A DNA stretch of 46,969 nucleotides from IMG/VR virus record IMGVR_UViG_3300045988_152627. One strand, 5' to 3'. The position numbers and the translations under genes are program-made. The stretch comes from a virus (Duplodnaviria > Heunggongvirae > Uroviricota > Caudoviricetes). Below are positions 5,816-46,092 of this stretch, in pieces. How positions within the stretch are numbered: position 1 is the first letter of the stretch; every line of letters begins with the position of its first letter. Below the pieces are notes generated by a model. The model was not told the DNA's origin, made no database searches, and worked only from the letters and a program-made list of their open reading frames with translations.

Positions 5816-8600
5816 AACTTAATCTCCGTTGTTGGAACATATGAGCACTCAATTTCTTCTCAAAATCAGAATATCCCGCATCTAATGCTCTTTTAGCTGC
5901 CGCCTCAGTTTCCTTTGGTGAACCAGCCGGAAGATTGATTACAGGTGAATAGGTTATTCCACCAGTCACAGCGTTAACGTTCTGGCGAGTTCCAGAAGTC
6001 CCGGCGGCAGATATCCCGTGAGGTGATAAATTTGATTGCCCGAACTTGGTTGCTATTGCATTCTGTAAGCTGTTATTCCTGCTAACACCTGATGCCAGAG
6101 TAGTCATTATTGCCCCCCCTGACTTTGTTAGCTGTGTGAATGGACCTTTTTTCGCGTCAGAGAACGGTAAATACTCACGTACAGAAGAAAAAACGCCTTT
6201 CACTTCATTAATTAAAGCATTTGCTTTTGATTTTATCCCAGTGATTAACGTCTCAATTATTTTTGCACCTGACTCACTCCAGTTTATTCCAGATAAATAA
6301 GCCGTTACAGATTGGAATGCTCTTATAAAGAGTCCAACTGGTGAAAAACGCATAAAAACAGACACCAGTGTATCTATGATTTTCTTTCCTGTTTCACTCC
6401 AGTTAATGCCAGAAAGGTAATTTGTTGTAAGTTTAAATGCTTTAATTAAGAACGGAAGCGGAGACATCCATTTAAAAGCACTAATTAATGTACTGTAAAT
6501 TCTTACTCCTGCCGAACTCCAGTTTATGTTGGAAAGATAATCCCATGCTTTACCAAACATAGATATAATCCATCCATTGAGATCAAAGTTTAAGATAAAG
6601 TTTTTTATAGCTTCAAACGATTTAACTGTATATTCCTTAACAGAAGGCCAAACTCTGACAGCATAATCTCTGATCTTATCCCAGTTCTGATAGAGCAATA
6701 TTCCTGCGGCAACCAGCGCAGATATAGCCATCTGAATCCACCCGAAGGGTGTTAGCTTTGTCGCTACAGATAAAGCCAGCATAGCTACCCTACACGCTAT
6801 AACCACACTTTTCATGGTTAGAAACGCACCTGCCGCCATCACAATCTGAGACACAAAATTGGGGTTGTTAGCTACAAATTCACTAATTTTTGTAATCAGC
6901 GGAACCAAAACACTAAGCGCGGCATTCAAAGCAGGTTGCAAGGCCTGACCAAAACTTAATGATGCATTGCTAGCCTGAATACGTAATTGTTTCAATCGCT
7001 CCGCATTGTCTTTCGTTATGTTGGTAAAATCGCGGTCAATAACAGCACTTCCAGCACCAAGAGATGTTGCTTTGATTCTCTGGTATTCCTTCCAGTTTTG
7101 AATCATCGGACGAACAAAGTTCTGAACCTGCATATCGCCAAATAGCTCACCAAGTAACTTCTGATCTCCGTTCTTAGTCATTTTCATGACAGAATGCATT
7201 GCAGCTTCGAATGGATTCTTCCCTTTTTTCTGCGCTGTTGTGACAATTTTATATAAATCTACACCGAAATTTTTCTTTGCTTTTTTTAGTGTTTCAGGGG
7301 AAAGTATTTTCGCCAAAAAGTTGTTCATGTTATTAGCAGCCTCATCCGAAGTTGCAGCACCTTTGCGAGCTATCTGCAAAGCTGCCCCCATCGTCGCGGC
7401 GGCTTCTTTACCTCCCATTTTTAATGCCTGGAACTGGGCACCAAGCACAGGAAGATTTTTGGCCATATCTTTAAATTCAAAGTTTCCCTCTTTCCCTGCC
7501 TGAACCAGAATCCCCATTGCAGACTTCATTTGAGATGGATCAATCTTCAATGAGTCACTTAATGTAAATGATGCTTTCGAGACATCGAGGATATCAGAGC
7601 CAGTAGCTGTAGCTGTTCGCCCAATAGTTAGTAGATTCGCCTGAGCCTCTTTATAATCCTGCCCAGCAGCGACAAGAAAACCCTGAGCGGCCTGAATATC
7701 AGATGCAAACTGGTTGGTGGCCGTTCCGGTAACAAGCATCGCCTGCCCCATCGCCTGAACTTCTTCCGGCTTCATATCTGCCGTAAGACCAATCATTTTG
7801 TTTTCACGATTGAAATTTGCTGCATTGTTAGCAGCAGCAAATGCACCAGCCGCTACAGCACCAGTTTGTAATCCTGACCTTACAAGTTGACTCTTTGCCT
7901 CACCAAGATGCTCTCGCTTCAATTCACGCTGCCTTTCCAACGCGCGGTTTAACTCCTCCTGAGCACGTTTTACTGCAAGAACATTTTTCCGTGCTTCAGC
8001 CAACGCATTTTTATAGCTGTTAATTTTATCAATACGTTGTTTTTCTAATGCCCGGTTAAGTTCCTCCTGCTGTTTTTTCACTTGCTGAACATTTGCTCTG
8101 GCTAAAGCCAAAGCCGTTCTGTAGCGGTTAACCTGCTCAACGCTACGGGCCTGAGCCTCACGATTACGATCAATGCTTGCTTTAAGCTCTTTCTCTCTTG
8201 AGGCTAAAGCTCTGGCAGATGTATCAGCTCCCTGATACGCAGACTTTAAAGCGGCCAGTTCTTCACGCTGAGAACGTAGTGATGCTCGTAAATTTGATGA
8301 ATGTGTTTTTGCCTTCTCAAAGTCACGAAGCATCGCTCTGGTTGGATTGGCCGTGTTTTTTATTTGCTTCTGTAACTCTTCAACGCGAGCAGCAGCTTTA
8401 TGATATTCGAGGGCAGTCTGTCCAACCTTTACTTTTACAGATTGTAGCTTTTGAATTTCCCCATGTTCTTTCGTTAATCCAGCAAGCTCTGCATTTAATT
8501 TAGCAACAGCCTGATTAGCTGTAGTAAAACTTTTGGGGAGAGAGGCGGCAACTTTGCCGCCAATTTCAAAAGCCAGCTTAAAGTTCTTATTGCTGGCCAT
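5808..8600 (-). CDS. Tail tape measure protein
   Basis: 930 aa; N-terminal coiled-coil repeats, central hydrophobic segment; follows the frameshifted chaperone pair. Confidence 0.85.
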   Translation of the reverse strand: MASNKNFKLAFEIGGKVAASLPKSFTTANQAVAKLNAELAGLTKEHGEIQKLQSVKVKVGQTALEYHKAAARVEELQKQIKNTANPTRAMLRDFEKAKTHSSNLRASLRSQREELAALKSAYQGADTSARALASREKELKASIDRNREAQARSVEQVNRYRTALALARANVQQVKKQQEELNRALEKQRIDKINSYKNALAEARKNVLAVKRAQEELNRALERQRELKREHLGEAKSQLVRSGLQTGAVAAGAFAAANNAANFNRENKMIGLTADMKPEEVQAMGQAMLVTGTATNQFASDIQAAQGFLVAAGQDYKEAQANLLTIGRTATATGSDILDVSKASFTLSDSLKIDPSQMKSAMGILVQAGKEGNFEFKDMAKNLPVLGAQFQALKMGGKEAAATMGAALQIARKGAATSDEAANNMNNFLAKILSPETLKKAKKNFGVDLYKIVTTAQKKGKNPFEAAMHSVMKMTKNGDQKLLGELFGDMQVQNFVRPMIQNWKEYQRIKATSLGAGSAVIDRDFTNITKDNAERLKQLRIQASNASLSFGQALQPALNAALSVLVPLITKISEFVANNPNFVSQIVMAAGAFLTMKSVVIACRVAMLALSVATKLTPFGWIQMAISALVAAGILLYQNWDKIRDYAVRVWPSVKEYTVKSFEAIKNFILNFDLNGWIISMFGKAWDYLSNINWSSAGVRIYSTLISAFKWMSPLPFLIKAFKLTTNYLSGINWSETGKKIIDTLVSVFMRFSPVGLFIRAFQSVTAYLSGINWSESGAKIIETLITGIKSKANALINEVKGVFSSVREYLPFSDAKKGPFTQLTKSGGAIMTTLASGVSRNNSLQNAIATKFGQSNLSPHGISAAGTSGTRQNVNAVTGGITYSPVINLPAGSPKETEAAAKRALDAGYSDFEKKLSAHMFQQRRLSFG

Positions 8601-9583: not shown

Positions 9584-11047
9584 TTATTCAGAAAACAAGT
9601 TCAGCAGATAATCAGGATTATACTCCATGACGAACTCAATATCTCTGGCAGGTGAGAATGGTGTCATTTTTACATGGAATTTAACAATCCCGTCCATTAA
9701 TGACGTAATCGTGTTTTCAGACTGATCAAAGGTAACAACACCACCTGCAATATCCTGATTACCTGTGAGGCCGTTAAGCCAAATATTCGCACTTGTAACA
9801 ATCGATTCAATTAATCGACGGTTTGCAGGATTGTCTATTTTTGACCAATGCGAAAGAATTAACGTATTACCCACCCAGTTAAACATACGTCGGCAAACAC
9901 GAAATGCGTCTTTGGGGTCTGTAGATGTTGGATAAATAGCATTACGGTTTCCCCATGATTTCCAACCATCAAAATTAAGGCTTGTTACAATCCCCTGTCC
10001 ATTTAAGTAGTTTGCCTGGCTAATGTTAAGCCATACTTCACTGCCATCTTTACGTACAGCACCGTCCATCTGTAGTTTTATATTTGACGGAGAACGTGAT
10101 GGAATATCACCATACTGACTATCCAGCAAGCATGTTGCGGCCGCTAAATGGGTTGAGTGATGGTAAATATTGTCACCAAGTTTCACCATCGGCCAGCACA
10201 CTGTCTGGTTAGCGGCCATGTGATTATTGTTCTGTTTCCATTCAGGAACAGCCGAGTAATCACTGATAGTAGATTTATCGGTCGGCGCATCCGTTATAGC
10301 TTCTGCTTTGAACAATTCACTAATCAGCGCGGCTTTAGCCGCCATTAGCTGACCAACTTCACTATCAGAACTAAATCCAGGTGCAATCACTTGTCCAGGA
10401 ACTAACTTGAAGCGGGGATACACATCTGACAGTAACTCAAGCCCTGTATTGGCTTTAGTGTTGGAATCCACACCACCGATAATGTCATTTTTAGTTACGG
10501 CACCGGGATCAAGATGCGTATAACTAACCTTAAGAGTAGCGTCTTTTTCGGTAATTTTTCCTCCGCTAATAGCTGTAATGACCGTATAGCCATTATCATC
10601 CAGCGCCAGCACATAATCGGTATCAACCGTTAACCCAGGCGAATCACCATCTGCTTTTTTCACAACAACAGATTTATATAAGACACCATCGTTAGAGAGC
10701 GTACCTTTCCCGCCAGAAAGTTTTACTAACTCATCAGTAACGTCTTTCTTATGCTTTGCTGGATCAAGCACATTGATAAATACAACTGGCGCAACACCAT
10801 ATATTCCAAATGCGACTTTAATTACTTCGCTTAAAGTATATTTCTCGAAGTTTGTGCTATATCCTATTTTAGATACGGCCTCTGCGTATGTATAAGCAAT
10901 GATAGGTTTATTTACCGCTGAGGCTGGATCTTCTAACTGATTAACAGGAGCCGTACCAAATGCGACAATCAACCCAGCACTAACTTGCACTGGAGGAGTT
11001 ATAGATGTAGCCAGTTCAGATATATAAATACCGTGGCGATATCCCAT
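9584..11047 (-). CDS. Contractile tail sheath protein (FI-like)
   Basis: 487 aa, first gene of the sheath-tube-chaperone-tape measure block. Confidence 0.75.
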   Translation of the reverse strand: MGYRHGIYISELATSITPPVQVSAGLIVAFGTAPVNQLEDPASAVNKPIIAYTYAEAVSKIGYSTNFEKYTLSEVIKVAFGIYGVAPVVFINVLDPAKHKKDVTDELVKLSGGKGTLSNDGVLYKSVVVKKADGDSPGLTVDTDYVLALDDNGYTVITAISGGKITEKDATLKVSYTHLDPGAVTKNDIIGGVDSNTKANTGLELLSDVYPRFKLVPGQVIAPGFSSDSEVGQLMAAKAALISELFKAEAITDAPTDKSTISDYSAVPEWKQNNNHMAANQTVCWPMVKLGDNIYHHSTHLAAATCLLDSQYGDIPSRSPSNIKLQMDGAVRKDGSEVWLNISQANYLNGQGIVTSLNFDGWKSWGNRNAIYPTSTDPKDAFRVCRRMFNWVGNTLILSHWSKIDNPANRRLIESIVTSANIWLNGLTGNQDIAGGVVTFDQSENTITSLMDGIVKFHVKMTPFSPARDIEFVMEYNPDYLLNLFSE

Positions 11048-12164: not shown

Positions 12165-12556
12165 TACTTCTTATTACCTTTTTTTTGCGTTGATTTTTTC
12201 GCATTACTGGTATCAGAAGTAGCTACAGATTCAGATGAATCATCAGCAACCGTTTCCTCATTGCCGCCATCATCCTCAAACTCAACCTCGAATACACAGC
12301 TACCCGCCTCCGTTCGCGTAATCAACCCCGCGTCCACAGCATCATTAACAGCAGATGCGTATCCATGCTCAAAAGCTAACTTAGCAGCATCATAGCCCCC
12401 GGCCGATGCCAAATCACCATCCTCTTCGGTGGCAATAGCATGTCCTGACGCAATCAGTTCGGCAATTCTGGAGTTATCCATTAGCCCATTAAGCAAACGG
12501 CCCGCTTTTAGCGAGCCGTGGCTTATCGTATCAATGTTTTTAATCAGTCTGGCCAT
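12164..12556 (-). CDS. Hypothetical protein, possibly head completion (acidic C-terminus)
   Basis: 130 aa directly downstream of the major capsid gene. Confidence 0.4.
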   Translation of the reverse strand: MARLIKNIDTISHGSLKAGRLLNGLMDNSRIAELIASGHAIATEEDGDLASAGGYDAAKLAFEHGYASAVNDAVDAGLITRTEAGSCVFEVEFEDDGGNEETVADDSSESVATSDTSNAKKSTQKKGNKK

Positions 12557-13600
12557 TTAAACCACCTTAGCCACCAGATAGGCATCAGCCACACCAGGAT
12601 TAGGCAGTGGAGATGACTTCATGGCAACATAACGGCCAGCCGGCTTACGAGTTACCCAGGTGTCTGGAACTCGTGGTGACTCAACAATCGTTAGAGTCTT
12701 TTCGGCGTCATCTACAAGCTCTACAGCACCATACAGCATCGTTCCTCGACCAGGAGAGCCAAAGAGGATCTTATCTTCCGGTACTAATGGTTCTGGTTTT
12801 CCTGTTTTATCATTGCGAATAAGTTCGTCGTAACCATAAAAATCGACACCTTCAAGATTGCCATAATGAGTTACGCCTTCTTCTAACTCCTTAGGCTCAA
12901 TATACCCAAGCTCTTTTCGGCGATTATCAAGATATTTAGTTACTGCTTCATTTTTAACGAAAGCATCAACAACTTTTGCGCCCATTACGGCAACACGAGG
13001 TGTAAAACCTGAAGTTAGTGATACCCGACGTTTCCAGTTGCGAACATTGACCAACGGATCTGATTTTGCTGCACTCCATAAATCATCACCTGTCAGTTCA
13101 AGATATGGTTTATCTCCTTCCTCTTCAGGCCAAAAATAAACTGTGTCATCCACACCTTCACCAACAATATCAACCTGCCCCGTAAACAAGACTTGTGCAC
13201 ACATCCATTCTTCACGGCGGTTAACCATTTCATCAAGCTCAAGCAAATCTTTACCTAATTGCTCGGCGGCTCGTTCTGCTGGCGATTTTGCGTTGTAAAT
13301 ATTCTCACCCGGAAGCCTGTTTAAAAGCAGCTCTGCTGTTGTTACCAAATCAGGTGCAACAAGTGGTGGCTCCAGAGTTCTCGTTACAAAGCCGCGTCGC
13401 TCAACGGTTTTTGAGCCAAAACCTTTACCAACAAACGGAGCCATAGTACGGCCACCGCGAACAAAATCCAGATCAACTTTCTTTGTATTAAAGGTCTGAA
13501 CACCAGGAAAAAAGGTACGAAGAAGAAAACGACGAGCCTTGAAATTCTGAATAACAGGCTCAAGCATTGTACGTCGTTCAAAAATATCAATATTCGGCAT
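12557..13600 (-). CDS. Major capsid protein, lambda gpE-like
   Basis: 347 aa; C-terminal PDTWVTRKPAGRY...SSPLP resembles the lambda E NWVTTGDPAR...SAPLM region; follows the decoration and protease genes. Confidence 0.8.
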   Translation of the reverse strand: MPNIDIFERRTMLEPVIQNFKARRFLLRTFFPGVQTFNTKKVDLDFVRGGRTMAPFVGKGFGSKTVERRGFVTRTLEPPLVAPDLVTTAELLLNRLPGENIYNAKSPAERAAEQLGKDLLELDEMVNRREEWMCAQVLFTGQVDIVGEGVDDTVYFWPEEEGDKPYLELTGDDLWSAAKSDPLVNVRNWKRRVSLTSGFTPRVAVMGAKVVDAFVKNEAVTKYLDNRRKELGYIEPKELEEGVTHYGNLEGVDFYGYDELIRNDKTGKPEPLVPEDKILFGSPGRGTMLYGAVELVDDAEKTLTIVESPRVPDTWVTRKPAGRYVAMKSSPLPNPGVADAYLVAKVV

Positions 13601-13620
13601 AAAAATACGACCTCTTTATA

Positions 13621-14004
13621 TTATGCAGATGGATTTTGTTGTGCGGTGTTAAGGAATATCCCAACCTTCCGGCAAGCCAGATATACATCGGCAATCTTTG
13701 CTGATTCAGGAAGGATAACCGCATGTGCATTGAACATTCCGGTCAGCCATGCTGTTCCAACTTGCGCTGAATCAGTCGCATCAATACTGTGTTGAGCGAT
13801 ACAATACGGTTCTTTTGCCACCCCCTCACCAGAGAGATTTATTGGTGCTACAGTGACAACATTTGTTGTCTGATCAATACTGACAAAAGCAAGCAACTCA
13901 CCTCGATTTACTTTACCGCTGGCAAGTTTAATACTTGTTGTAATTGCTGGCATACCACCAGAAATAATCAGATTATCTGGTTCAAATGAAAAAGACTCTC
14001 GCAT
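13621..14004 (-). CDS. Head decoration protein, lambda gpD-like
   Basis: 127 aa between protease and capsid genes, the lambda C-D-E order. Confidence 0.55.
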   Translation of the reverse strand: MRESFSFEPDNLIISGGMPAITTSIKLASGKVNRGELLAFVSIDQTTNVVTVAPINLSGEGVAKEPYCIAQHSIDATDSAQVGTAWLTGMFNAHAVILPESAKIADVYLACRKVGIFLNTAQQNPSA

Positions 14005-14013
14005 AAACTCACC

Positions 14014-15102
14014 TTAATTTTTATCGCGGTTTTTAAATACTGACCCAATAACATTTTTTACTACTTCAGCTTGTTTATCGCCGTTGTTTTCTGGTTGATT
14101 AACATCAACTGAATCATTCACCTCATTTGCGTCTTCTTGCCGTTGATTAAGAAAGTTTTTGTTACGCGCTCGCTCTGCATTCATAATTTCCAAAGCAAGT
14201 TCAGCCGCAGAAACTCCCGTTTTGAATTTTGCATTCTTAACCAGGTCGTCATGACCTGGAATCACGCTATTCTCGATTGTTTCAATGCGCTCGCGTTCTG
14301 ATTTAACGCCCTCGTCTTTACCAGCATTAAAAACCTGATTGTATAATTCTGGATGTTTATTTTTTAATTCATCAAGAGTCACAACATCGTCCTCGGTTTG
14401 TTCATTTAATTCAGTAGATAATTCATTTTTATTTTGTGGCAACTTTGCGAGCGAATCAGGTAATTTTGAAAACCTTGATGCTTCAAAAGTTATTCCATTG
14501 AGCGAAAGCATCCCTTCCTTTATAGAAGCGGATAAACGCATTGGTTTTTCAACTTCGTCAGCAAACCCAAGCTCAACAGCTTCTTCTGCATTTAGCCAAG
14601 TTTCCTGATCCATTAGTTCAATTAACTTATCTTCAGAAAGTCCTGTCTTCTCCTTATATGCAGATAAAATACTATTTCGTATCTTATCCATCATCTCAGC
14701 AATATCACGCAATTCATCCGCATCCCCCATTGCCCATGTCCACGGATTATGGATCATCATCATAGCATTAGATGGGATAACAACTTTATCACCTGCCATT
14801 GCAATAATGGTTGCAGCCGATGCAGCAATACCATCAATATAAACTGTAATATTAGCCTTATGACGTTTTAATGAAGAAAGAATAGCTTGAGCTGTAAAAA
14901 CAGAACCACCATAACTATTAATTTTTACGTTGATAGCATTTGATGAAATATCCTTTAATTTATTAACTATGTCAGAAGAAGAAACCTCATCAAATTCACC
15001 AATATACCCGTATATTAAAAGCTCAGCCGGAGTGTCATCTTCACCCGTGCTATTTTTTATTTCCCACCAATTAGGCATCATCAGTCTCCATATTTTGTTC
15101 AT
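14014..15102 (-). CDS. Head maturation protease / scaffold, S49 (ClpP/SppA-like), lambda gpC-like
   Basis: 362 aa with INSYGGSVFTAQAI...GIAASAATIIAMAGDKVV...MMIHNPWT, characteristic of S49 peptidases. Confidence 0.8.
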   Translation of the reverse strand: MNKIWRLMMPNWWEIKNSTGEDDTPAELLIYGYIGEFDEVSSSDIVNKLKDISSNAINVKINSYGGSVFTAQAILSSLKRHKANITVYIDGIAASAATIIAMAGDKVVIPSNAMMMIHNPWTWAMGDADELRDIAEMMDKIRNSILSAYKEKTGLSEDKLIELMDQETWLNAEEAVELGFADEVEKPMRLSASIKEGMLSLNGITFEASRFSKLPDSLAKLPQNKNELSTELNEQTEDDVVTLDELKNKHPELYNQVFNAGKDEGVKSERERIETIENSVIPGHDDLVKNAKFKTGVSAAELALEIMNAERARNKNFLNQRQEDANEVNDSVDVNQPENNGDKQAEVVKNVIGSVFKNRDKN

Positions 15103-23185: not shown

Positions 23186-23420
23186 GCCGTTTATCCGCTA
23201 AAATCCCCTCGCTTGTGCAAGCAAGTGGGCCTCGGTTTGTATCCACGGCACCCTGTGGGTATGAATGACTGTCGTCAGGTCGCAACTGACGGCGGTCGCC
23301 CACCTTCCAGTAATAAAAAAGCCACCAGCATTAACTCCACAGCGAGCTGGAGTTAATGAGGCAGCTTTGGTTTGCGCATTATCGCAGTCCCTGGTAAGCA
23401 CAAGAGCTGCTGTAATGCTA

Positions 23421-23450
23421 AAAAAACAAAACCACCCGCAGGTGGTTTTA
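23421..23450. terminator. Bidirectional rho-independent terminator
   Basis: Hairpin AACCACC-CGCA-GGTGGTT flanked by an A-run upstream and a T-run downstream; ends the minus-strand operon 25081->23478. Confidence 0.6.
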
Positions 23451-23477
23451 TAAATAAATAGCAAACAGGTATCTGCA

Positions 23478-24785: not shown

Positions 24786-24810
24786 CCCATGTTCTCCTTT
24801 GTCTGGATGT

Positions 24811-24836
24811 AAAAAAGCCCCGGCAATTGCCGAGGC
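24811..24836 (-). terminator. Candidate intra-operon terminator or attenuator
   Basis: Minus-strand hairpin GCCTCGGC-AATT-GCCGGGGC followed by TTTTTT, between the 73-aa and 151-aa genes. Confidence 0.45.
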
Positions 24837-24859
24837 TCGTTGTTCGTTATCGTTACGGT

Positions 24860-25781: not shown

Positions 25782-26083
25782 GTTAGTTATGTCTCCGCCG
25801 CTCAGGCAGTCATAACGCTGGCCAGCTCTACAGCAGACACAACGAAAAGGGCACTAACCAGACTGATTAATGCCCTTGCCTGTTGTGTGCCGGATATCGC
25901 CCGACAACGCTGTTTTGGTAACACGGCTACAGTTCCGTGCCGCTCCAGCTTTTACCCCTTTGCGGATAACAGGCCCTGCCTGTAACTTAGCCCCACGTTC
26001 GCCCGAAATGCGCACCAGGCACGCATAAAGATGAGCACGAAGGAAGTAACTCCACCGCGCTTATCTTTATGTGTGAGAGTGAA

Positions 26084-26159
26084 TTGGTGGCCCCTACCGG
26101 ATTTGAACCGATGACCGTGCGATTATGAGTCGCCTGCTCTAACCACTGAGCTAAGGGGC
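26084..26159 (-). tRNA. tRNA with CAU anticodon, most similar to tRNA-Ile2 (ileX-type); elongator Met not excluded
   Basis: 76-nt cloverleaf GGCCCCTTAGCTCAGTGGTTAGAGCAGGCGACTCATAATCGCACGGTCATCGGTTCAAATCCGGTAGGGGCCACCA: 7-bp acceptor stem, D and T arms, CTCATAA anticodon loop, encoded CCA. Confidence 0.85.
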
Positions 26160-26329
26160 CATATTTGATCTGTTTGTCTGGTGTGGCGCCGCGCACGAAA
26201 ATCCCAGCCAATAAATTCAGGATTTTTGGGCGCGGCGGCATATCAGACAAACATGGTTGATGCGTGCGCCCATGAGAAAAGCGCATAGAATGTTGTAACT
26301 ATATATTTATATAATTATAGAAATATATA

Positions 26330-26539
26330 TTACTTTCGGCAGTTGATTTCCCATGCCCTGTTATGAGCCAGAATATCTTTCTTTGTCTGGCGGTCCATAA
26401 CATCGATGTCGTGATCAGTCAGGTAGATGGGCTTTACCCAATCACAGGCGGTATCAACCACCACCGGGACGCTTCCACGACTCCCGCAGCTCGCGATCAA
26501 CATCGTCATCAGCCATATGGTTAACACTCTGCTGTACAT
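26330..26539 (-). CDS. o-spanin (Rz1-like lipoprotein)
   Basis: 69 aa with signal peptide and lipobox LIASC; partly nested in the 3' end of the Rz-like gene in another frame. Confidence 0.55.
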   Translation of the reverse strand: MYSRVLTIWLMTMLIASCGSRGSVPVVVDTACDWVKPIYLTDHDIDVMDRQTKKDILAHNRAWEINCRK

Positions 26540-26732
26540 TCCCCACCTCTTTTGTCACTTCTATACGCCGCTCCGCAGTGGCTTTTACGGCGGCTGCATT
26601 CTCATTAATGCGCTGCTTTTCAGCTTCATCTTCGGCCTTTTCTCGCCCCTTCATACGACCAAAACCAAATGCGCCGAATGCAACCAATATAATGGTGCCG
26701 ATAAATGACAAAACGGCTTTCAAACCAGTCAT
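26454..26732 (-). CDS. i-spanin (Rz-like)
   Basis: 92 aa; N-terminal TM helix then charged coiled-coil region; directly downstream of the endolysin. Confidence 0.6.
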   Translation of the reverse strand: MTGLKAVLSFIGTIILVAFGAFGFGRMKGREKAEDEAEKQRINENAAAVKATAERRIEVTKEVGNVQQSVNHMADDDVDRELRESWKRPGGG

Positions 26733-27271
26733 ACCACCACTCGCTCTTTCATCCAGCCATAGACAAACGACTCATTTGCTTCGCGTTTCTCCGCCAGGTC
26801 CAGATAACGGTCGCCCTGCGTACAGTTCAGGGCCGTCAGCATTACCCGTTCGCCGTCTTTTCCCCGATTCCCAAGATAAGCACGTAATGCCGCAATGGTG
26901 CGCGGGCCGATTCGCCCATCCACATCCATATCTGGATACAACTTCCCGCCACGGTTGAAAACATTCAACCAACGTTGAAGCATCTTCGTCGCCACAGTCG
27001 GCCCCATGTTGACGCCCGTATCACACATCTCCGCCGCAATATCAGGGGAAAATTGCGCCACTTGGTCAAAACGAGGTCCATACCAATAATCACCTTCAAG
27101 AATCATCAGTGCCTGTTCGCGGGTTAAATCGCGCATATCGCCACGGTATCCATGAGCACGGGCAGTGTTCTGAGTAATGCCCCACATTGTTGGGCCTCCC
27201 TTGTCGTCAGGGTGATCCACATAGCCGCCCTCTTTTCCAAGAATGCTGTTAAAAATCTCATCTTTGGTCAT
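26729..27271 (-). CDS. Endolysin, GH108-like N-terminus with peptidoglycan-binding C-terminus
   Basis: 180 aa starting MTKDEIFNSILGKEGGYVDHPDDKGGPTMWGIT, typical of GH108 phage lysins; sits between holin and spanins. Confidence 0.7.
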   Translation of the reverse strand: MTKDEIFNSILGKEGGYVDHPDDKGGPTMWGITQNTARAHGYRGDMRDLTREQALMILEGDYWYGPRFDQVAQFSPDIAAEMCDTGVNMGPTVATKMLQRWLNVFNRGGKLYPDMDVDGRIGPRTIAALRAYLGNRGKDGERVMLTALNCTQGDRYLDLAEKREANESFVYGWMKERVVV

Positions 27272-27590
27272 GATTAAACCCTAATGCGTCAACTATCCGC
27301 GCCAGATTGCCCCTGAAATACAGAACAACGATGCAGATAATCAGATTTCCAATAACCACCAGCCAGTGGGATTCTTGATAAAGACCGAACACATAACGGA
27401 AGGGAACATTGGCGTATACAATGACGTAGATATAAGCCAGCAAGGAAACAAATGGACGATGCCTGGAGTCTTTCCGTCGATAAAGCATCAGCGCCATTAC
27501 TATTACTGTGCAAAGCACCGCATTAATCAGTGCTGACGGGTCACTGCTTACCATTTGAACCCCCTCCACGTAAGCGGGAAAGCATTCCAA
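27258..27590 (-). CDS. Membrane protein, possible second holin or antiholin
   Basis: 110 aa with three hydrophobic helices; overlaps both neighbours. Confidence 0.4.
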   Translation of the reverse strand: MECFPAYVEGVQMVSSDPSALINAVLCTVIVMALMLYRRKDSRHRPFVSLLAYIYVIVYANVPFRYVFGLYQESHWLVVIGNLIICIVVLYFRGNLARIVDALGFNHDQR

Positions 27591-27936
27591 AGATGCTACC
27601 GAGATCCTGGCTGTTTACGAACGTGAGGATTTTAATTGTCAATGCAGCCACAATAACCGCACCAAGCGCATCAAGAGGACGATCGTTGTAGCTGGTCCAT
27701 TTGGCAAGAAATGAGCCAACTAACGGCGCTCCAATCACTCCAACAATGAACGATGTAAAGAAATAGCCAATCAGCTTGAGACGGCTAATATTCACCGCTG
27801 TAGCAACATAGAAAACAGCGCCAGCAAATGCCCCGAATACAACGCCGTAATCAATACCAGTTGCAATACCAAAAACGCTGGCACCCATCAGGCCACCAGC
27901 AGCAACGGCCGTACCGGAAATTGGTTCTGCTGACAT
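27541..27936 (-). CDS. Putative holin
   Basis: 131 aa with multiple Gly/Ala-rich TM helices; first gene after the terminator at 27950..27980. Confidence 0.5.
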   Translation of the reverse strand: MSAEPISGTAVAAGGLMGASVFGIATGIDYGVVFGAFAGAVFYVATAVNISRLKLIGYFFTSFIVGVIGAPLVGSFLAKWTSYNDRPLDALGAVIVAALTIKILTFVNSQDLGSIFGMLSRLRGGGSNGKQ

Positions 27937-27949
27937 TGAAATCCTCGTT

Positions 27950-27980
27950 AAAAAAAAAGCCCCGCCGAAAAAGGCAGGGC
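27950..27980 (-). terminator. Rho-independent terminator just upstream of the holin start (tR'-like position)
   Basis: Minus-strand hairpin GCCCTGCC-TTTTTC-GGCGGGGC followed by a 9-T run, then RBS GAGGA and the holin ATG. Confidence 0.6.
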
Positions 27981-28126
27981 TTTACAAAGCAACAAATTAC
28001 GCGGTAATCGCTTAACGCAGTTTTACTACGTTAAATGAAACGTTACACCCAGTTACCACCTAAAACAAGGCTTTTCCATAAAAAAACCTTCACATCGTGG
28101 TTAATCGATCAATAAAAAAGCAATGT

Positions 28127-28318
28127 TCAACTTTTCACCAACCGAACATCCCGACCAGGACTTCCATAATATTTGCCGATATGCCACAGCTTAAGTTGAG
28201 TAATCTTCTCCAACTTAACTCCCACAGAATCCAATTTCTGCCATGTTTTCGGTTGTATGTGCCTCATTACCCGCTCTGAATATCTAAATACTGCTCGTAG
28301 CCTCGCTAAATTGCTCAC
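28127..28318 (-). CDS. Hypothetical small protein
   Basis: 63 aa ORF coupled to the upstream 300-aa gene. Confidence 0.3.
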   Translation of the reverse strand: MSNLARLRAVFRYSERVMRHIQPKTWQKLDSVGVKLEKITQLKLWHIGKYYGSPGRDVRLVKS

Positions 28319-31085: not shown

Positions 31086-32153
31086 TCAGGCTTTCAATAG
31101 CGATTCTTTCAGATATCGGGCATCAGCCAGGGCGTTTGGAGTAATCTTGCGAACCCATGCATTACGGGTTGGACTCCACTTAAAGGCGCGTGATTTAAGC
31201 AGCGAACGAATGTTTGCCTCTGGTTTGCCAGGGAAATAAAACAGGATGCGGTTATCCTCTGGATCTATCTCCATAGAAAAGCCGTCGTATTCTTCGCGCT
31301 GTGCTCCTGTTACAGACTTGACCGATTCAAGCTCCTTAATACGGCTCTGTAGTCGTTTGATTTCGGCGTTATTGTTGCTCAGTGCGTATGAAGGGAATCC
31401 GATGCGCCCACAGAAATCTCCGGCCAGTAACTCTTTGGCTTCGCTTTCTGTAAACCTGAGATCGATTAATGCAGAAAGCTGCTGTAATTGGTCTTTTTTG
31501 TATTTGCGAATGGCCTTATTTGCGGCCTTCATTTTGACGTGTGACTTCATGCAGCCTTGCAGCTTACGAAGCAACTTAAATAGCGCATCAGGATCATCAG
31601 ACGAAATTCCATTACGACCAACACCTGCGGCTTTGCTCTCGTAGTGTGATGCTTTACTTTCGCATTCAACAAACGTTTTTCTGAATAACGCATCAGCTTT
31701 AGACAAACGGCGGCGATGGCCTTTCGCGCTATAATGGTCAACTAAAATCGGCTGGCCTAACGGGATCACATCCAACAGGTCATGCGCTCGCTTATGCGCT
31801 ACCGCACCTTCTTTTCTGGCTTTTTCTGCACGAGCAATATATCGGGCAAGACGCGCGTTCTGGCGTTCCTGATAGGTGTTTACGTAATCATCTCCGCGCT
31901 GCTGCTGTTCAAGCCATGCTTTGCGCAGATCTTCTGTTACGTCCACCAGCTCCGCAGGGATACAACCAGTTTGGGCTTCATAAGAGTAACCATCCTCATA
32001 GATACGCCCATCGTCTTCAACAAAGAAAAAGGTTTCGTGCTCATCGCTTTTGACCATACGACCATTAACATGGCGTAATAGGTAGCCAGTATCAGTGCTT
32101 AACAGGCTGTTAGGGTTGTTGATCCAGTCAGAAATAATTACTTGTTTATTCAT
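31086..32153 (-). CDS. Hypothetical protein (DUF3560-like?)
   Basis: 355 aa; first gene after promoter-leader cassette copy 2; family assignment by recall only. Confidence 0.4.
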   Translation of the reverse strand: MNKQVIISDWINNPNSLLSTDTGYLLRHVNGRMVKSDEHETFFFVEDDGRIYEDGYSYEAQTGCIPAELVDVTEDLRKAWLEQQQRGDDYVNTYQERQNARLARYIARAEKARKEGAVAHKRAHDLLDVIPLGQPILVDHYSAKGHRRRLSKADALFRKTFVECESKASHYESKAAGVGRNGISSDDPDALFKLLRKLQGCMKSHVKMKAANKAIRKYKKDQLQQLSALIDLRFTESEAKELLAGDFCGRIGFPSYALSNNNAEIKRLQSRIKELESVKSVTGAQREEYDGFSMEIDPEDNRILFYFPGKPEANIRSLLKSRAFKWSPTRNAWVRKITPNALADARYLKESLLKA

Positions 32154-32275
32154 CAGATTTCTCCGGTTTAACCAGGGCGGGTATCGCTCGGTTTCGGTTA
32201 TAACCTTAGGAAATTTTTTCCCACCTGTAAAGCACTTTTTATATAAATCTATAATTATATATTTATAGATTTTCG
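32154..32275 (-). promoter_or_regulatory. Promoter-leader cassette copy 2, directly downstream of the Q-like gene
   Basis: Same sequence as copies 1 and 3 with a few substitutions (TAAGGT at the -10 position); TATAAATCTATAATTATATA motif upstream. Confidence 0.55.
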
Positions 32276-32322: not shown

Positions 32323-32700
32323 TTACTCTCTTCGCTTTTTCAAATAATCGACAACATACGCCCTGGCTTTTGCCAGCTTCCGGCGATACTGTCTGAGACT
32401 AAGAGAAAGGGCGTGGGCTTTATCAATATGCGGTGCATTTATGTCGAGGCCCCGAATCTCCCACGCCCCGTATTCAATTCGGACAACCAGCGCCGCAGTC
32501 TCATCAACTACCGTGAGGGCCGTCACCGCTCCCTCGATACTGGTTTCCAGTGAGTCATTTGGTGCGCCGCCCCCTCCGGTAAACTGGCAACGCGTAACCA
32601 TCATCATTTCTAACATCGACGCGAAACCGCTACGGGCGTTGCAGCCATTGCGCACCCACAGCGCCCATAGCTCAAACAAGCTATCCAGATCGCGTCTCAC
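32323..32700 (-). CDS. Putative late antiterminator, Q-like
   Basis: 125 aa; LFELWALWVRNG...VDETAALVVRIEYG...RRKLAKARAYVVDYL pattern recalled from small Q-type antiterminators; lies between nin-like genes and a strong promoter. Confidence 0.45.
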   Translation of the reverse strand: MRRDLDSLFELWALWVRNGCNARSGFASMLEMMMVTRCQFTGGGGAPNDSLETSIEGAVTALTVVDETAALVVRIEYGAWEIRGLDINAPHIDKAHALSLSLRQYRRKLAKARAYVVDYLKKRRE

Positions 32701-34673: not shown

Positions 34674-34847
34674 TTAACGAACTCCAATTAAAACCACGAT
34701 ATGTGGTATTAAAACCACATATCGTGAGTTTTTCAATGGGCGAAACAAAAAATAACCTTCTAATTGTGGTCCACCTCTCGTCTTACCATGTGAAAACCAC
34801 TAAATGTGGTAATGTATAAATAACCCACCATTCACGATTGATGAGAC
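34674..34847. promoter_or_regulatory. Immunity-region operator/promoter block with three CCAC-N5-GTGG-type operators
   Basis: ACCACGATATGTGGT (34693..34707), ACCACATATCGTGAG (34713..34727), ACCACTAAATGTGGT (34796..34810) between divergent repressor and Cro-like genes. Confidence 0.6.
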
Positions 34848-35504
34848 ATGAAAAGCAACGACGAGAACATCAAGAAAGAAATAGGTCTGCGCATTCAGAC
34901 TCTACGGAAACAATCCGGCATGACTGCCGGAGATCTCCAGCAAGTCACTGGAATAGGCTTAAGCACCTTGCAGAACTATGAGGCCGGATTAAGACAACCA
35001 TCTATACCTGCCATCAAGAAAATCGCGCACGCCCTGAAAGCATCAGCGCCTTATATCGCGTGCTTAACAGATAACCCGTTCCCACCCCAGAATACTAACG
35101 CTCCTGTTATTCCTGGGCTTGTAGCTATAAAAAATGACATAGCATCGCACGCCGGAGAAAAGCCAGTGCTGGCGATAGAACAGGAGATTCTACGAAGCAA
35201 GAACATCAACCCATCGTCTCTGTCAGTTCTCCAGAGCAACGATGAGTTAATGTCACCAACAATATCCCCAGGCTCCCAAGTCCTGATTAATACAGACGAT
35301 ACAGAGATTCATGAGGGGATCTATGCCCTTGAAGACAGAAATGGCCTGGTTGTTTTGAGGCACTGTAGAGTCATACCGGGTGACAATGCTGTTATGCTGT
35401 CAACCGAAAGGGATGCTGAAATGAACACTAATCATCTGAATAACGAGGAATTTAAGCGTTATAAAGTTCTTGGCCGCGTAGTTAGTGTTGTCAACTGGTT
35501 ATGA
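34848..35504 (+). CDS. CI-like repressor (XRE HTH + S24/LexA-like C-terminal domain)
   Basis: 218 aa; HTH TAGDLQQVTGIGLSTLQNYEAG; C-terminal LexA/UmuD-like layout ending KVLGRVVSVVNWL. Confidence 0.8.
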   Translation: MKSNDENIKKEIGLRIQTLRKQSGMTAGDLQQVTGIGLSTLQNYEAGLRQPSIPAIKKIAHALKASAPYIACLTDNPFPPQNTNAPVIPGLVAIKNDIASHAGEKPVLAIEQEILRSKNINPSSLSVLQSNDELMSPTISPGSQVLINTDDTEIHEGIYALEDRNGLVVLRHCRVIPGDNAVMLSTERDAEMNTNHLNNEEFKRYKVLGRVVSVVNWL

Positions 35505-35545: not shown

Positions 35546-35560
35546 AACCACGCTTTGTGG
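35546..35560. promoter_or_regulatory. Operator-like palindrome ACCACGCTTTGTGGT overlapping a promoter for 35597..35971
   Basis: Same CCAC-N5-GTGG pattern as the immunity-region operators; followed by TTGACA and TATAAA elements and RBS AAGAGG. Confidence 0.45.
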
Positions 35561-37279: not shown

Positions 37280-37295
37280 ATTCAACCATAAAAAA

Positions 37296-37311
37296 GGCCC
37301 CCGAAGGGGCC
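37296..37311. terminator. Bidirectional terminator hairpin GGCCCCCGAAGGGGCC
   Basis: Perfect GC-rich hairpin flanked by an A-run upstream and T-rich sequence on the opposite strand. Confidence 0.55.
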
Positions 37312-37877
37312 TAATCGCTACTTGCTGCTAATGTTTATCGTCACATTCAGAGCGTTATCAGTAATCTTCCAACCCTCCCCATGTGGCGTAAACAAAGCCC
37401 CAGTAACAACGATAAAAATACACATACAGTATTTTTTCATTGTATGGCCCTTACAGGCCGTTTCACGGCATCCCCACCGACGAAAACAACGCGAGAGCAA
37501 GCACGGCTGCTTGTGCTTGCATGTACGGCAACAGGAAATCCTCCCCTAAAGTCGGTGCCCGGGTGCGAATCGGCGGGAAGGTCCACAGGTATTTTACGAT
37601 TATTTTAAGATTAGTAATAGGAAATAAATTAAACGAAAAAACCAGTTTATTTTCACAAAATCAGTAACCTACCCACAATCTGTGAGTTTGCAGACACAAC
37701 AAGAACCACAATTTTTTGAAGCATAATAGTGGACTATTATTACCTTTTGGGTAAAATCAACTTGCTGCTTGTGCTTGCGTGGTTGTTTATACAACAACGT
37801 AATGCTGAAAGGACCGCGAATCCGATCAGCACGAAAGAACCGTCCTCAATAGGGCGGTTTTTTTGTTTCTTCACTCA

Positions 37878-38554: not shown

Positions 38555-38569
38555 CCCACACTATGTGGT
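38555..38569. promoter_or_regulatory. Operator-like palindrome CCCACACTATGTGGT upstream of the antirepressor operon
   Basis: CCAC-N5-GTGG pattern 25 bp upstream of a TTGACA element at 38593..38598. Confidence 0.45.
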
Positions 38570-38864
38570 TGTCTCTGTTAAAATCCCGCCGTATTGACAT
38601 GAATGCGCCATTGGTGGACACTTTCCGAGCCGTAGCAAAATCTACGGTCGGGATTAGCCTCCTGAATAACACGATGGCGCATACCGCGTTAGCGGTTTTT
38701 TTATGCGTAGAGCACTGTTACGCCCAAATTATGGTGGGTCGTACAGGGGCGGAGAAATCCGCGCCGGTTCGTCATTGTGTCCGGTAAGGCTAACCCTGTA
38801 CGGCTCACCACCATTTGATTAGCCTCGAATGGCGGTGATAGTTCCATATATTGGAGATATCACA

Positions 38865-39056
38865 ATGACAAACTTACCCCATGACTATTACGTCAACCTC
38901 GTAAAGATCCTTCTCAAGAAAGCCTCATACGCCGATAAATTCCGCCTGGCTGAAATAATCGAGCGCGAAGCTATGCGCATCGCCAGCAACGATAACGCTG
39001 TTTCTGACGCAAAAATCTCCCTCGTAACCAAAGTAGTTATGGGAGGTGCAAAATGA
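38865..39056 (+). CDS. Hypothetical small protein, coupled to the antirepressor
   Basis: 63 aa from ATG 38865 (RBS GGAGAT); stop overlaps the antirepressor start. Confidence 0.35.
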   Translation: MTNLPHDYYVNLVKILLKKASYADKFRLAEIIEREAMRIASNDNAVSDAKISLVTKVVMGGAK

Positions 39057-40195
39057 AAACGCTTCCGACCGTTAACACCCTACAGCCTATCCTGCATAAC
39101 CAGATCCCCGTTATCACCACGGAGCTGCTTGCCAAACTATATGGCTGTAGCGTCGAATGTCTTCACAGAAATCACCACCGTAATAAGTCCCGGTTTACAG
39201 AAGGAAAACATTTCATAGTTGTAAAAGGTACAGATCTCCAAAGTTTGAAAATCTCTTTAAGAGATTTTCAAACCATCGCGAATAACGTTAGAAAGCTCAT
39301 CCTCTGGACCGAACGCGGGGCTGCACGTCACGCTAAAATGCTCGAAACCGATCAGGCATGGGATGTATTCGAACGGCTGGAAGACTGCTACTTCAACCAG
39401 AACGCGCAAACGGCCGCGACCGTAACCGTCTCACCAAACAATGCTCGTGAGGTTGTCGATACGCTCAACGCTAAACCAATGTATTACGTTAAGGTGTGCA
39501 ACAACGAGCCACTCACAACCTCAGCCGATGTTGCCCAAGCATTCAGCACCACAAACAATTCCATCGTTATGGCCATCGATGCGTTACGTATTCCTCGCAC
39601 AGCTGCGGCGCGTCACTTCTTTAAAGAACAACGACCGCTGGAAGGAAGCGACCGCGAAATAACAATCTATCGCATGACAAAAGACGGATTTACCTTGCTC
39701 ATGGAAAGTATCGACGGTCCAGGCGTGAAGGATATCAAGCTGGCCTACATTGAAGCCTTTAACGCTATCAGCAGCGTGTTAAAGGCAGAATACGAGCGAA
39801 TGCTATACAACCGACTGTATCAGGAAACAAAGATTATCCGAACGGCAACAGAACATCATCGGCTATTAACGGAACCAAACTACCGCAAGACACTAATCAA
39901 AGAATTTGACAAGGCGACGGAGAAAACTAAAGCGGCACTAAATCTACCAACAATGACTAAAGATGATGTGATATCAGCCTTACTTCTTGATCTGCTCAGA
40001 AACGCCAGAGCACTTATCAGTTTTGACGAAAACCTGAATCCTCAGCTCAAGCTACTACCACCGACAGGCAAAGTAGTCGACCAAGCAGATCACAACAGCA
40101 TACTCAGCGTACTGGATGCAAACCTGCCAGCCAGGACACTACAGGAGCTGATAAAAATATCTGCGGATAAACTGGCCGCAGGTGCAAAACCATAA
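39053..40195 (+). CDS. Phage antirepressor (KilA-N/ORF6N-like N-terminus plus Rha-like domain)
   Basis: 380 aa; N-terminal ITTELLAKLYGCS...KHFIVVKGTDL and central TSADVAQAFSTTNNSIVMAIDAL resembling the Rha motif. Confidence 0.65.
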   Translation: MKTLPTVNTLQPILHNQIPVITTELLAKLYGCSVECLHRNHHRNKSRFTEGKHFIVVKGTDLQSLKISLRDFQTIANNVRKLILWTERGAARHAKMLETDQAWDVFERLEDCYFNQNAQTAATVTVSPNNAREVVDTLNAKPMYYVKVCNNEPLTTSADVAQAFSTTNNSIVMAIDALRIPRTAAARHFFKEQRPLEGSDREITIYRMTKDGFTLLMESIDGPGVKDIKLAYIEAFNAISSVLKAEYERMLYNRLYQETKIIRTATEHHRLLTEPNYRKTLIKEFDKATEKTKAALNLPTMTKDDVISALLLDLLRNARALISFDENLNPQLKLLPPTGKVVDQADHNSILSVLDANLPARTLQELIKISADKLAAGAKP

Positions 40196-46077: not shown

Positions 46078-46092
46078 ACCACGTTACGTGGT
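46078..46092. promoter_or_regulatory. Operator-like palindrome ACCACGTTACGTGGT upstream of the repA leader
   Basis: Same CCAC-N5-GTGG pattern as the repressor operators, between the invertase stop and the repA control region. Confidence 0.4.

Follow-up and report, generated by a model that had tools for sequence, protein, structure and literature searches.

We propose that the 190-bp interval in front of the lysis genes of a virus of the class Caudoviricetes (IMG/VR record IMGVR_UViG_3300045988_152627; 46,969 nucleotides, hereafter called the window) is a self-contained late switch of the lambdoid pR'/tR' type, and that it would be opened by a protein remotely similar to Q21 whose gene lies 4.2 kb upstream; we put the probability of this reading at roughly 0.55. 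On the minus strand, which carries the whole leader and lysis neighbourhood, the order is a 125-amino acid (aa) open reading frame (ORF), seven variable accessory ORFs, the 190-nt interval (the leader) and the lysis cassette. The proposal is built on an intrinsic terminator that abuts the holin gene, on a promoter-like module held in exact register across five lineages with unrelated flanks, and on the resemblance of the 125-aa protein to Q21 in fold and sequence profile. Coordinates of all features are collected in Table 1.

A conserved intrinsic terminator abuts the holin gene

The 5' arm of the terminator (GCCCTGCC, 27980..27973), a 6-nt loop (TTTTTC) and the 3' arm (GGCGGGGC, 27966..27959) form a stem of 8 bp, seven G-C pairs and one G-U wobble, which is lengthened by three A-U pairs between AAA (27983..27981) and the first three residues of a run of nine T (27958..27950) lying directly 3' of the stem. 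This is the G+C-rich hairpin with an immediately adjoining U tract by which intrinsic terminators are defined, and with 11 pairs, 7 of them G-C, it ranked first among 14 candidates in 9 kb in a terminator scan. A separate hairpin scan returned a folding free energy (dG) of -16.2 kcal/mol, and when the whole 47-kb strand was shuffled 40 times with its dinucleotide composition kept, no hairpin with dG <= -16 followed by nine T arose. When five leader variants were folded jointly with RNAalifold only two elements were retained, this terminator and a hairpin at the predicted 5' end of the RNA that is invariant in the group; the terminator stem is kept in relatives through one compensatory pair (UA to CG) and two G-U-compatible changes. 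Judged by its sequence, the terminator is strong, near-ideal and conserved.

The U tract ends 3 nt before the Shine-Dalgarno sequence and 13 nt before the holin ATG, a distance too short to hold a promoter, so the holin gene can be reached only by read-through. The preliminary description of this stretch, made from the sequence alone, had recognized the GC-rich hairpin and its nine T residues, called them tR'-like and concluded that lysis-gene expression should require read-through. All of this is borne out, and the label is apt. Its estimate that the element ends about 15 nt before the holin ribosome-binding site (RBS) was nearly right for the hairpin, which ends 12-13 nt away, but not for the T run, which ends only 3 nt away.

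A promoter-like module is conserved within the leader

Comparison with related loci shows that a skeleton of the form TTGnnn-N17-TAGT(G/C)T-N6-TAACGT, anchored on TAACGT, is held in exact register in five lineages (the window's own, L092/L093/L114, L100/L112, L095/L097/L113 and L096/L102), whose flanking sequences cannot be aligned and whose Q-like proteins are, in the four relative lineages, 54-92% identical to that of the window. The hexamers are universal across the five lineages and the 17-nt spacer is lineage-specific. The first -10-like hexamer reads TAACGT only in the window and TAGTGT or TAGTCT in every relative examined, so the window alone presents a tandem TAACGT-N6-TAACGT. From this layout we predict a transcription start at about 28034..28031 (near 28033) and a terminated RNA of about 80 nt, and the second, invariant TAACGT is a candidate sigma-dependent pause element. 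The spacer TAGGTGGTAACTGGGTG contains an imperfect direct repeat (GGTGGTA / GGGTGTA) and is, we infer, a candidate binding element for the Q-like protein. With a sigma-70 position weight matrix (PWM) the module was the top-scoring leader site in 5 of 9 loci and among the top three in all 9; it occurs once in the window, and an exact-pattern scan of viral contigs with the leader core found the same phage group only.

The leader also behaves as a unit independent of both of its flanks, being kept when either the upstream gene or the lysis cassette has been exchanged. In pMB9272_3 another gene lies upstream and the leader homology starts at about 28124, just past the stop codon of the 63-aa ORF. 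Conversely, L092, L093 and L114, whose Q-like proteins are 87-92% identical to that of the window, possess a different lysis cassette (a P21-type holin-like gene and Phage_lysozyme) and yet keep CCTTGTTTTAGGTGGTAACTGrGTGTAGTGTTTCATTTAACGTAGTAAAACTGCGTT nearly unchanged; the terminator after this block has a different stem (GCCTCGCTT/AAGCGGGGC), and the sequence past the terminator is unrelated. Ten close variants were compared, and their substitutions are concentrated in three places: the four positions that follow AACCAC, the loop within the TGAAGG/CCTTG inverted repeat, and the stretch that separates the 5' hairpin from the terminator. The approximately 60 nt from CCTTG to GCGTT are invariant save for one base in one variant and the window's own TAACGT at -10. 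In L095, L096 and L113 lineages a different inverted repeat occupies the place of TGAAGG/CCTTG. An intrinsic terminator follows the module at about 80-95 nt in the window and L100/L112 (about +95 in the Pantoea-type L100/L112), and at about 0.25-1.7 kb in the L113 group.

The preliminary description had left two ways for the lysis genes to be transcribed, namely antitermination across a long leader operon or a second promoter within 27981..28126. The comparative evidence, with its skeleton in register across five lineages and a leader independent of its flanks, favours the second.

The conserved 5' hairpin invites a different reading, in which antitermination would be RNA-based (nut- or put-like) and the hairpin would act in the nascent RNA of polymerases arriving from upstream. 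The element has a 9-bp stem and a UAAAA pentaloop, and in L100 two stem pairs are altered on both sides with pairing kept; these two compensatory pairs, together with a conserved G-U wobble, argue for RNA pairing rather than a DNA palindrome. Nonetheless we hold this explanation to be very improbable. The leader has no boxA and no Rfam match, and the ORFs read included no evident arginine-rich N-like protein, although no dedicated search was made. Moreover the most conserved stretch, from -35 to -10, has no conserved RNA pairing partner, and a factor-independent put-like element directly before the terminator would render that terminator pointless. The hairpin is not predicted in L113 or L096.

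Alternatively, the promoter-to-terminator unit could be a small-RNA gene, its product of about 80 nt having a regulatory role of its own and lysis depending on partial read-through. The layout is typical of small RNAs (a 5' hairpin, a variable middle, and a terminator hairpin with a U tail), and the sub-threshold Rfam matches of the leader are all to small-RNA families. However, every one of these matches is below the gathering score and driven by the terminator, the middle of the RNA is not conserved even where the Q-like protein is 87-92% identical, and the unit would be about 1.7 kb long in L095 and L113. We consider a small-RNA gene quite unlikely, though it would be compatible with the late switch that we prefer.

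A probable remote relative of Q21 as the candidate antiterminator

The early operon ends with the 125-aa ORF, whose product is the most plausible trans-acting partner of the proposed late switch. An AF2 model built with 53 sequences (pLDDT 82) suggests a fold related to sigma region 4 (R4) with a helix-turn-helix-type DNA-binding motif, and when it was compared with the PDB by Foldseek the eight best matches were all Q21 chains (probability 0.69-0.97). Q21 itself has been described as sigma-R4-like (doi 10.1101/651190). Sequence profiles point in the same direction: Q21 was the sole PDB match of the 125-aa family profile (E 0.022), 9 of 53 family members weakly match the Q21 family PF06530 (best E 0.0018), and hhalign against a Q21-family alignment assembled from relatives of 933W Q gave a colinear, full-length alignment of 104 columns (E 0.0028). 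The 3' end of the early operon (minus strand) consists of Ref, DUF1064 and then the 125-aa ORF, and in every locus the homologues lie after Ref (with or without DUF1064), which is the position of Q in lambdoid phages.

The window protein itself does not reach the gathering score of PF06530, and its PHROG is without assigned function. We therefore regard it as probably a remote relative of Q21 rather than a demonstrated family member, and where the preliminary description spoke of a Q-like gene 4 kb upstream with seven ORFs between, the position stands (4.2 kb, seven ORFs) but the name does not hold as a firm label, there being no Pfam Q match and only remote Q21 similarity. A profile scan of genome contigs with the Q-like alignment returned one locus only, in Pantoea. 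The 125-aa protein further has a weak full-length NCBIfam match to the PA0613 family (E 2.5e-4), for which no function was found in the literature searched. PA0613 presumably lies directly upstream of the holin gene in the R/F-pyocin cluster of P. aeruginosa; if that placement is true, a related regulator may serve the pyocin lysis genes.

Proposed mechanism and its standing

We envisage that host sigma-70 RNA polymerase would start at the weak TTGTTT-17-TAACGT promoter (28068..28040), near 28033, where the second TAACGT (28033..28028) probably holds sigma and pauses the enzyme. Polymerase would then transcribe the 5' hairpin and, about 80 nt on, would stop at the terminator whose U tract lies 3 nt before the holin RBS. 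The same terminator would halt transcripts of the accessory operon (promoter 32231..32203), and the lethal lysis genes would thereby be insulated in the plasmid-prophage state. The lysis genes and the downstream late-strand genes, among which four more terminators occur, would be expressed only once polymerase has become resistant to terminators. The 125-aa protein is the most likely agent of this change; it may load on paused polymerase at the leader promoter, where the invariant spacer is a candidate site for its binding.

Several observations weigh against this scheme. No Pfam Q-family match was obtained for the window's 125-aa protein at E <= 0.01, the Foldseek matches to Q21 have E values of 0.1-0.5 and TM of about 0.5, below family thresholds, and the hhalign probability for the Q21 family is just 11%. 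The gene is not adjacent to its proposed target as it is in the canonical cassette, where Q is directly followed by the pR' unit; a separation of the 4.2-kb, seven-ORF kind is found in all relatives too. The promoter PWM score of 6.46 bits is about the median of the best site in any 240 nt of the window, and a consensus promoter scan did not list this site, so that the case for the promoter rests on in-register conservation and not on match quality. Finally, L095 and L113 have no canonical terminator until about 1.7 kb past the promoter module, and the most distant loci (L099, L101 and L116-L118) did not yield the exact skeleton.

A sigma-R4-like fold would also suit an ordinary activator. In that case the 125-aa protein would act on the weak leader promoter as a conventional activator or as a sigma appropriator, with the terminator serving as a leaky attenuator or as an insulator from transcription arriving from upstream. 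We judge this improbable, for activated transcripts would still meet a near-ideal terminator (dG -16, nine U) some 80 nt past the start and be aborted as well. Activator-type late systems (P2, Mu, P1) usually use several late promoters, whereas the module is single-copy in the window, and one copy followed by four further terminators in the late direction is more readily explained by a single antiterminated late operon than by multiple promoters that depend on an activator. Furthermore, the only proteins that align with the 125-aa protein over about 100 residues are the antiterminators Q21 and AlpA.

The long antiterminated transcript, first of the two options in the preliminary description, deserves separate consideration. 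Polymerase would here be modified at the promoter of the DUF3560 gene or in the early operon and would cross the seven accessory genes as well as the terminator, with the leader block serving some other purpose. The DUF3560 promoter is conserved, scores better than the leader module (8.6 bits), lies just 3' of the Q-like gene and has GGTGG opening its spacer. The variable accessory operon (31086..32153 through 28127..28318) opens with this promoter and extends as far as the terminator, and a hairpin scan detected no intergenic terminator between this promoter and 27958; the holin-side terminator would accordingly be the one that ends the cargo operon and shields the lysis genes. There is also a precedent in Stx phage 933W, where Q-modified polymerase can cross about 5 kb of cargo before S. 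On the other hand, the DUF3560 promoter travels with the DUF3560 gene and not with the Q-like gene, an extra ORF separates the two in L092, L093 and L114, L113-type relatives lack a promoter of this type, and it has no conserved second -10-like hexamer. A long transcript would also leave the invariant, flank-independent 60-nt leader block unexplained, and we consider it an unlikely alternative to the local late switch. Just 5' of the DUF3560 promoter lies an A+T-rich perfect 10-bp inverted repeat (AATCTATAAT..ATTATAGATT, 32240..32275, minus strand), partly kept in L092, L093 and L114, that may be an UP element or a regulator site.

Although speculative, and in our estimation somewhat short of even odds, the 125-aa proteins could make up an unrecognised branch of the Q-type antiterminators that diverged deeply, or a fourth sequence family among them, conserved in ParA-bearing phage-plasmids of Enterobacterales and beyond and acting on a portable promoter/pause/terminator module that is routinely kilobases of exchangeable cargo away from the Q gene; some relatives add ORF-free structured leaders of 1.7-2.7 kb without an Rfam match. 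If our reading is true, a phage-plasmid group with one member in E. coli ATCC 25922 and related Yersinia phages already isolated times its lysis by lambda logic, that is, with a constitutive short transcript and an antiterminator, the protein being now annotated as "hypothetical" and the regulator gene uncoupled from its DNA target. The recognisable Q21-like family would be extended, TTG-N17-TAGTsT-N6-TAACGT plus a terminator would be a signature for late promoters in such elements, and it would be explained how a variable cargo operon can reside directly upstream of lethal lysis genes without killing the host. A search of the literature on this phage-plasmid group found nothing relevant.

Other candidate elements in the leader and in related leaders

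The preliminary description had pointed to AACCACGATGTGAAG as resembling an operator half-site. The sequence is present at 28102..28088 (minus strand), where it matches CCAC-N5-GTGG at 3 mismatches, but 14 such matches were found against 9.2 +/- 3.2 expected by chance, and its central four bases (28096..28093) are the most variable leader positions among close relatives, so that we discard this suggestion. Genuine CCAC-N5-GTGG palindromes occur elsewhere (34694..34727, 34797..34809, 35548..35560, 38556..38568 and 46079..46091). One pair, located between the genes for the CI-like and Cro-like proteins, makes up a perfect 13-bp inverted repeat; the palindromes are likely operators of the immunity repressor, and the copies near the antisense-RNA region described below and at 46079 suggest further regulated sites.

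Further candidates were rejected. ACGATG (28098..28093) was considered as a lambda-like pause element on account of AACGATGG in L095-type leaders, but its bases vary freely in close relatives. The alternative promoters TTGAAC-N18-GATTAA, TTGATC-N16-AAGGTT and TTAACC-N18-TATGGA had lower scores or hexamers that are not conserved. An antiterminator pairing of GGUGGUAA with UUACCGC, seen in a single-sequence fold, is absent in L092, L093 and L114, and no conserved alternative RNA pairing was found in the leader when the fold and relatives were compared. No Rfam family (riboswitch, leader, small RNA, nut/put) matched the leader at its gathering score, the best sub-threshold match being GcvB (28.8 bits versus a threshold of 42), which is driven by the terminator.

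Where the Q-like protein of a relative is about 63% identical, a 1.2-1.9 kb ORF-free, G+C-rich stretch extends from the module to the first strong terminator. It is conserved (e.g. GGTGAGATGCCAGCACwCTCGACGGCAGTGACAGC, also found in L101), and a second structured stretch in these relatives ends in a terminator that abuts the holin gene. The ORF-free leaders gave no Rfam match and may be an undescribed large leader RNA. L101 (9540..9720) and L118 (9860..10070) share a structured block with a terminal terminator, ...GGAAGTAAGCAGGGGTAGCGCCCTGGTGTCrCAACACTrATTGCTGTGTGTAGTCTTTGG, and L118 also has a tRNA match of 127 nt (9620..9746), unusually long for a tRNA.

Genomic context

The window is nearly the complete genome of a circular phage-plasmid of 47-49 kb. 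Across 70 complete E. coli genomes the 778 bp around the leader recur in 72 places (95-99% identity), of which 71 are on plasmids (among them pECO-b75 and the plasmid of E. coli ATCC 25922). E. coli ECONIH1 carries the element as well. Yersinia phages vB_YpM_41 and vB_YpM_44 carry the same 778 bp at about 98% identity, and vB_YpM_39 matches at 96.9% with 89% coverage. Between about 34673 and about 1500, nearly all long ORFs lie on the minus strand. The lysis cassette is complete, comprising two holins, a GH108 endolysin and Rz/Rz1, and is followed on its 3' side by a tRNA, methylase and ParB-like genes and then by long minus-strand ORFs that are unannotated and presumably encode structural proteins.

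Some 40-60 nt inside the holin coding sequence lies another hairpin (27875..27899, minus strand; dG -16) followed by TTTTTGGTA, which may be a coincidence of Gly/Ala-rich coding sequence. The tRNA directly 3' of the lysis cassette (26085..26160, minus strand) has a CAT anticodon and is called Met by ARAGORN; a homologue is tRNA-Ile in RefSeq, which would imply a lysidine-modified tRNA-Ile2. Rfam matches at gathering score to ryfA, isrK and C4 antisense RNA (37290..37586, minus strand; 38629..38702 and 38727..38815, plus strand) lie 5' of a 380-aa ORF (39053..40195, plus strand) that we read, without a family search, as antirepressor-like. The region resembles a second immunity system of the P1/P7 immI kind beside the CI-type repressor, and L113 has the same antisense-RNA arrangement plus a c4-a1b1 target.

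Table 1. Positions of the features discussed, on the window unless a related locus is named.
Feature	Position	Strand	Basis or remark
Leader	27937..28126	-	190-nt gap, 63-aa ORF to holin gene
AAC, Shine-Dalgarno GAGGA (27946..27942) and 5-nt spacer TTTCA	27937..27949	-	Read directly; holin ATG at 27936
Intrinsic terminator	27950..27983	-	Top of terminator scan; dG; shuffles; conserved stem
Second small hairpin, CGATTAC-CGC-GTAATTTG	27993..28010	-	Lineage-specific; unrelated sequence in L092, L093, L114
Hairpin/dyad TTTAACGTAG-TAAAA-CTGCGTTAA at predicted RNA 5' end	28011..28035	-	RNAalifold consensus; dG -10.2
Second -10-like hexamer TAACGT, 6 nt past the first	28028..28033	-	Invariant in all five lineages
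-10-like hexamer TAACGT	28040..28045	-	T1, A2 and T6 always kept
17-nt spacer TAGGTGGTAACTGGGTG	28046..28062	-	Near-invariant in close relatives, lineage-specific in distant ones
-35-like hexamer TTGTTT	28063..28068	-	TTG kept in all five lineages; part of best leader PWM site
Inverted repeat TGAAGG ... CCTTG, variable loop, abutting -35	28066..28092	-	Leader comparison
Upstream box AACCAC	28097..28102	-	Conserved; then four hypervariable bases (28096..28093)
63-aa ORF	28127..28318	-	PHROG 9594, E 5e-45
Sigma-70-like promoter TTTACA-N17-TAAGGT	32203..32231	-	Before DUF3560 gene; PWM 8.6 bits; conserved
125-aa candidate antiterminator	32323..32700	-	Last early-operon gene; sigma-region-4-like C-terminal domain
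CI-like repressor	34848..35504	+	Faces early operon
Holin, 131 aa, first lysis gene	27541..27936	-	Pfam Phage_holin_8, E 1.7e-37; PHROG holin
Second holin (Phage_holin_3_7)	27258..27590	-	Pfam/PHROG matches
GH108 endolysin	26729..27271	-	PHROG endolysin match
Spanins Rz/Rz1	26454..26732, 26330..26539	-	PHROG Rz-like spanin matches
Further terminator, late direction, before MT-A70 methylase gene	25840..25877	-	Terminator scans
Further terminator, late direction	24808..24838	-	Terminator scans
Two further terminators, late direction (T runs from 23426 and 23320), ahead of ParB-like genes	23312..23451	-	Terminator scans
ORF-free and second structured stretches in relatives	L113 12073..13978 and 14484..14990; L095 11858..13719; L096 ~12450..13690		

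Comparison with known systems

As published, a Q cassette consists of a promoter, a -10-like sigma-dependent pause element, a terminator and the late genes (doi 10.1101/651190; PMC9388147). In the window the terminator likewise stands between the predicted promoter and the late genes, with the lysis genes next. The record of lambda reads TTGACT-N17-TAAATT-N6-AACGAT at pR', hexamers that we take to be the -35, the -10 and the pause-inducing element, and the same spacing recurs here as TTGTTT-17-TAACGT-6-TAACGT. Also shared with lambda would be a short terminated RNA ahead of the lysis genes (6S RNA in lambda), one late promoter followed by many terminators, and a candidate binding element within the promoter spacer. 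In contrast, lambda Q belongs to PF03589 and is encoded directly 5' of pR', whereas the window's protein has no Pfam Q match and its gene is 4.2 kb away; the terminated RNA is 194 nt in lambda and a predicted 80 nt or so here; and tR' precedes S by about 400 nt while the terminator of the window abuts the holin RBS.

Nascent-RNA stem-loops 5' of terminators are also a feature of HK022 put RNA and of lambda N/nut. Unlike those systems, no boxA or boxB and no two-stem put architecture was seen in the leader, and it is the promoter-like DNA, not the pairing, that is conserved most. In lambdoid prophages whose holins are 82% identical to that of the window, the holin gene lies directly behind a gene of the Q-lambda family (PF03589, E 3e-53), a promoter and one or two terminators. 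Upstream of these holin genes (L011-L083, e.g. L013 5510..5545 and 5940..5998) there is a variable terminator and, after it, the conserved element CCCCTC-N-GAGAGGACTCAC-N-AAGAGGGGG; pairing of its CCCCTC with the Shine-Dalgarno sequence is possible, L013 has two copies of the unit, and the element may be one of translational control.

Parallels are also offered by the Q21 family (PF06530) of phages 21 and 933W. Its members are of similar size (123-157 aa versus 125 aa), have a sigma-R4-like DNA-binding fold and share with the 125-aa protein an N-terminal (R)D(L/I)..LE.W..W motif within a colinear alignment, although the similarity of the latter is below the family threshold. Cassettes of this family also have their terminator within 100 nt of the start, and the direct repeat in the spacer, a candidate site, recalls the two 8-bp QBE subsites (doi 10.1101/651190). 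The 933W cassette has its Q21-family gene, pR', qut and terminators side by side, and the 5 kb of cargo (tRNAs, stx2) come after pR'-tR' and before S. In the window the cargo instead separates the Q-like gene from the promoter-terminator module.

The P. aeruginosa protein AlpA is chromosomally encoded and under DNA-damage control through AlpR, in which it differs from the 125-aa protein, and no sequence similarity was detected between the two. It is a non-Q protein that binds between -35 and -10, lets polymerase pass a terminator directly 5' of lysis genes and acts at a remote locus too (PMC7969949). The mechanism proposed here is a variant of a textbook principle, from which it departs in that the Q-like gene and its target are 4.2 kb apart.

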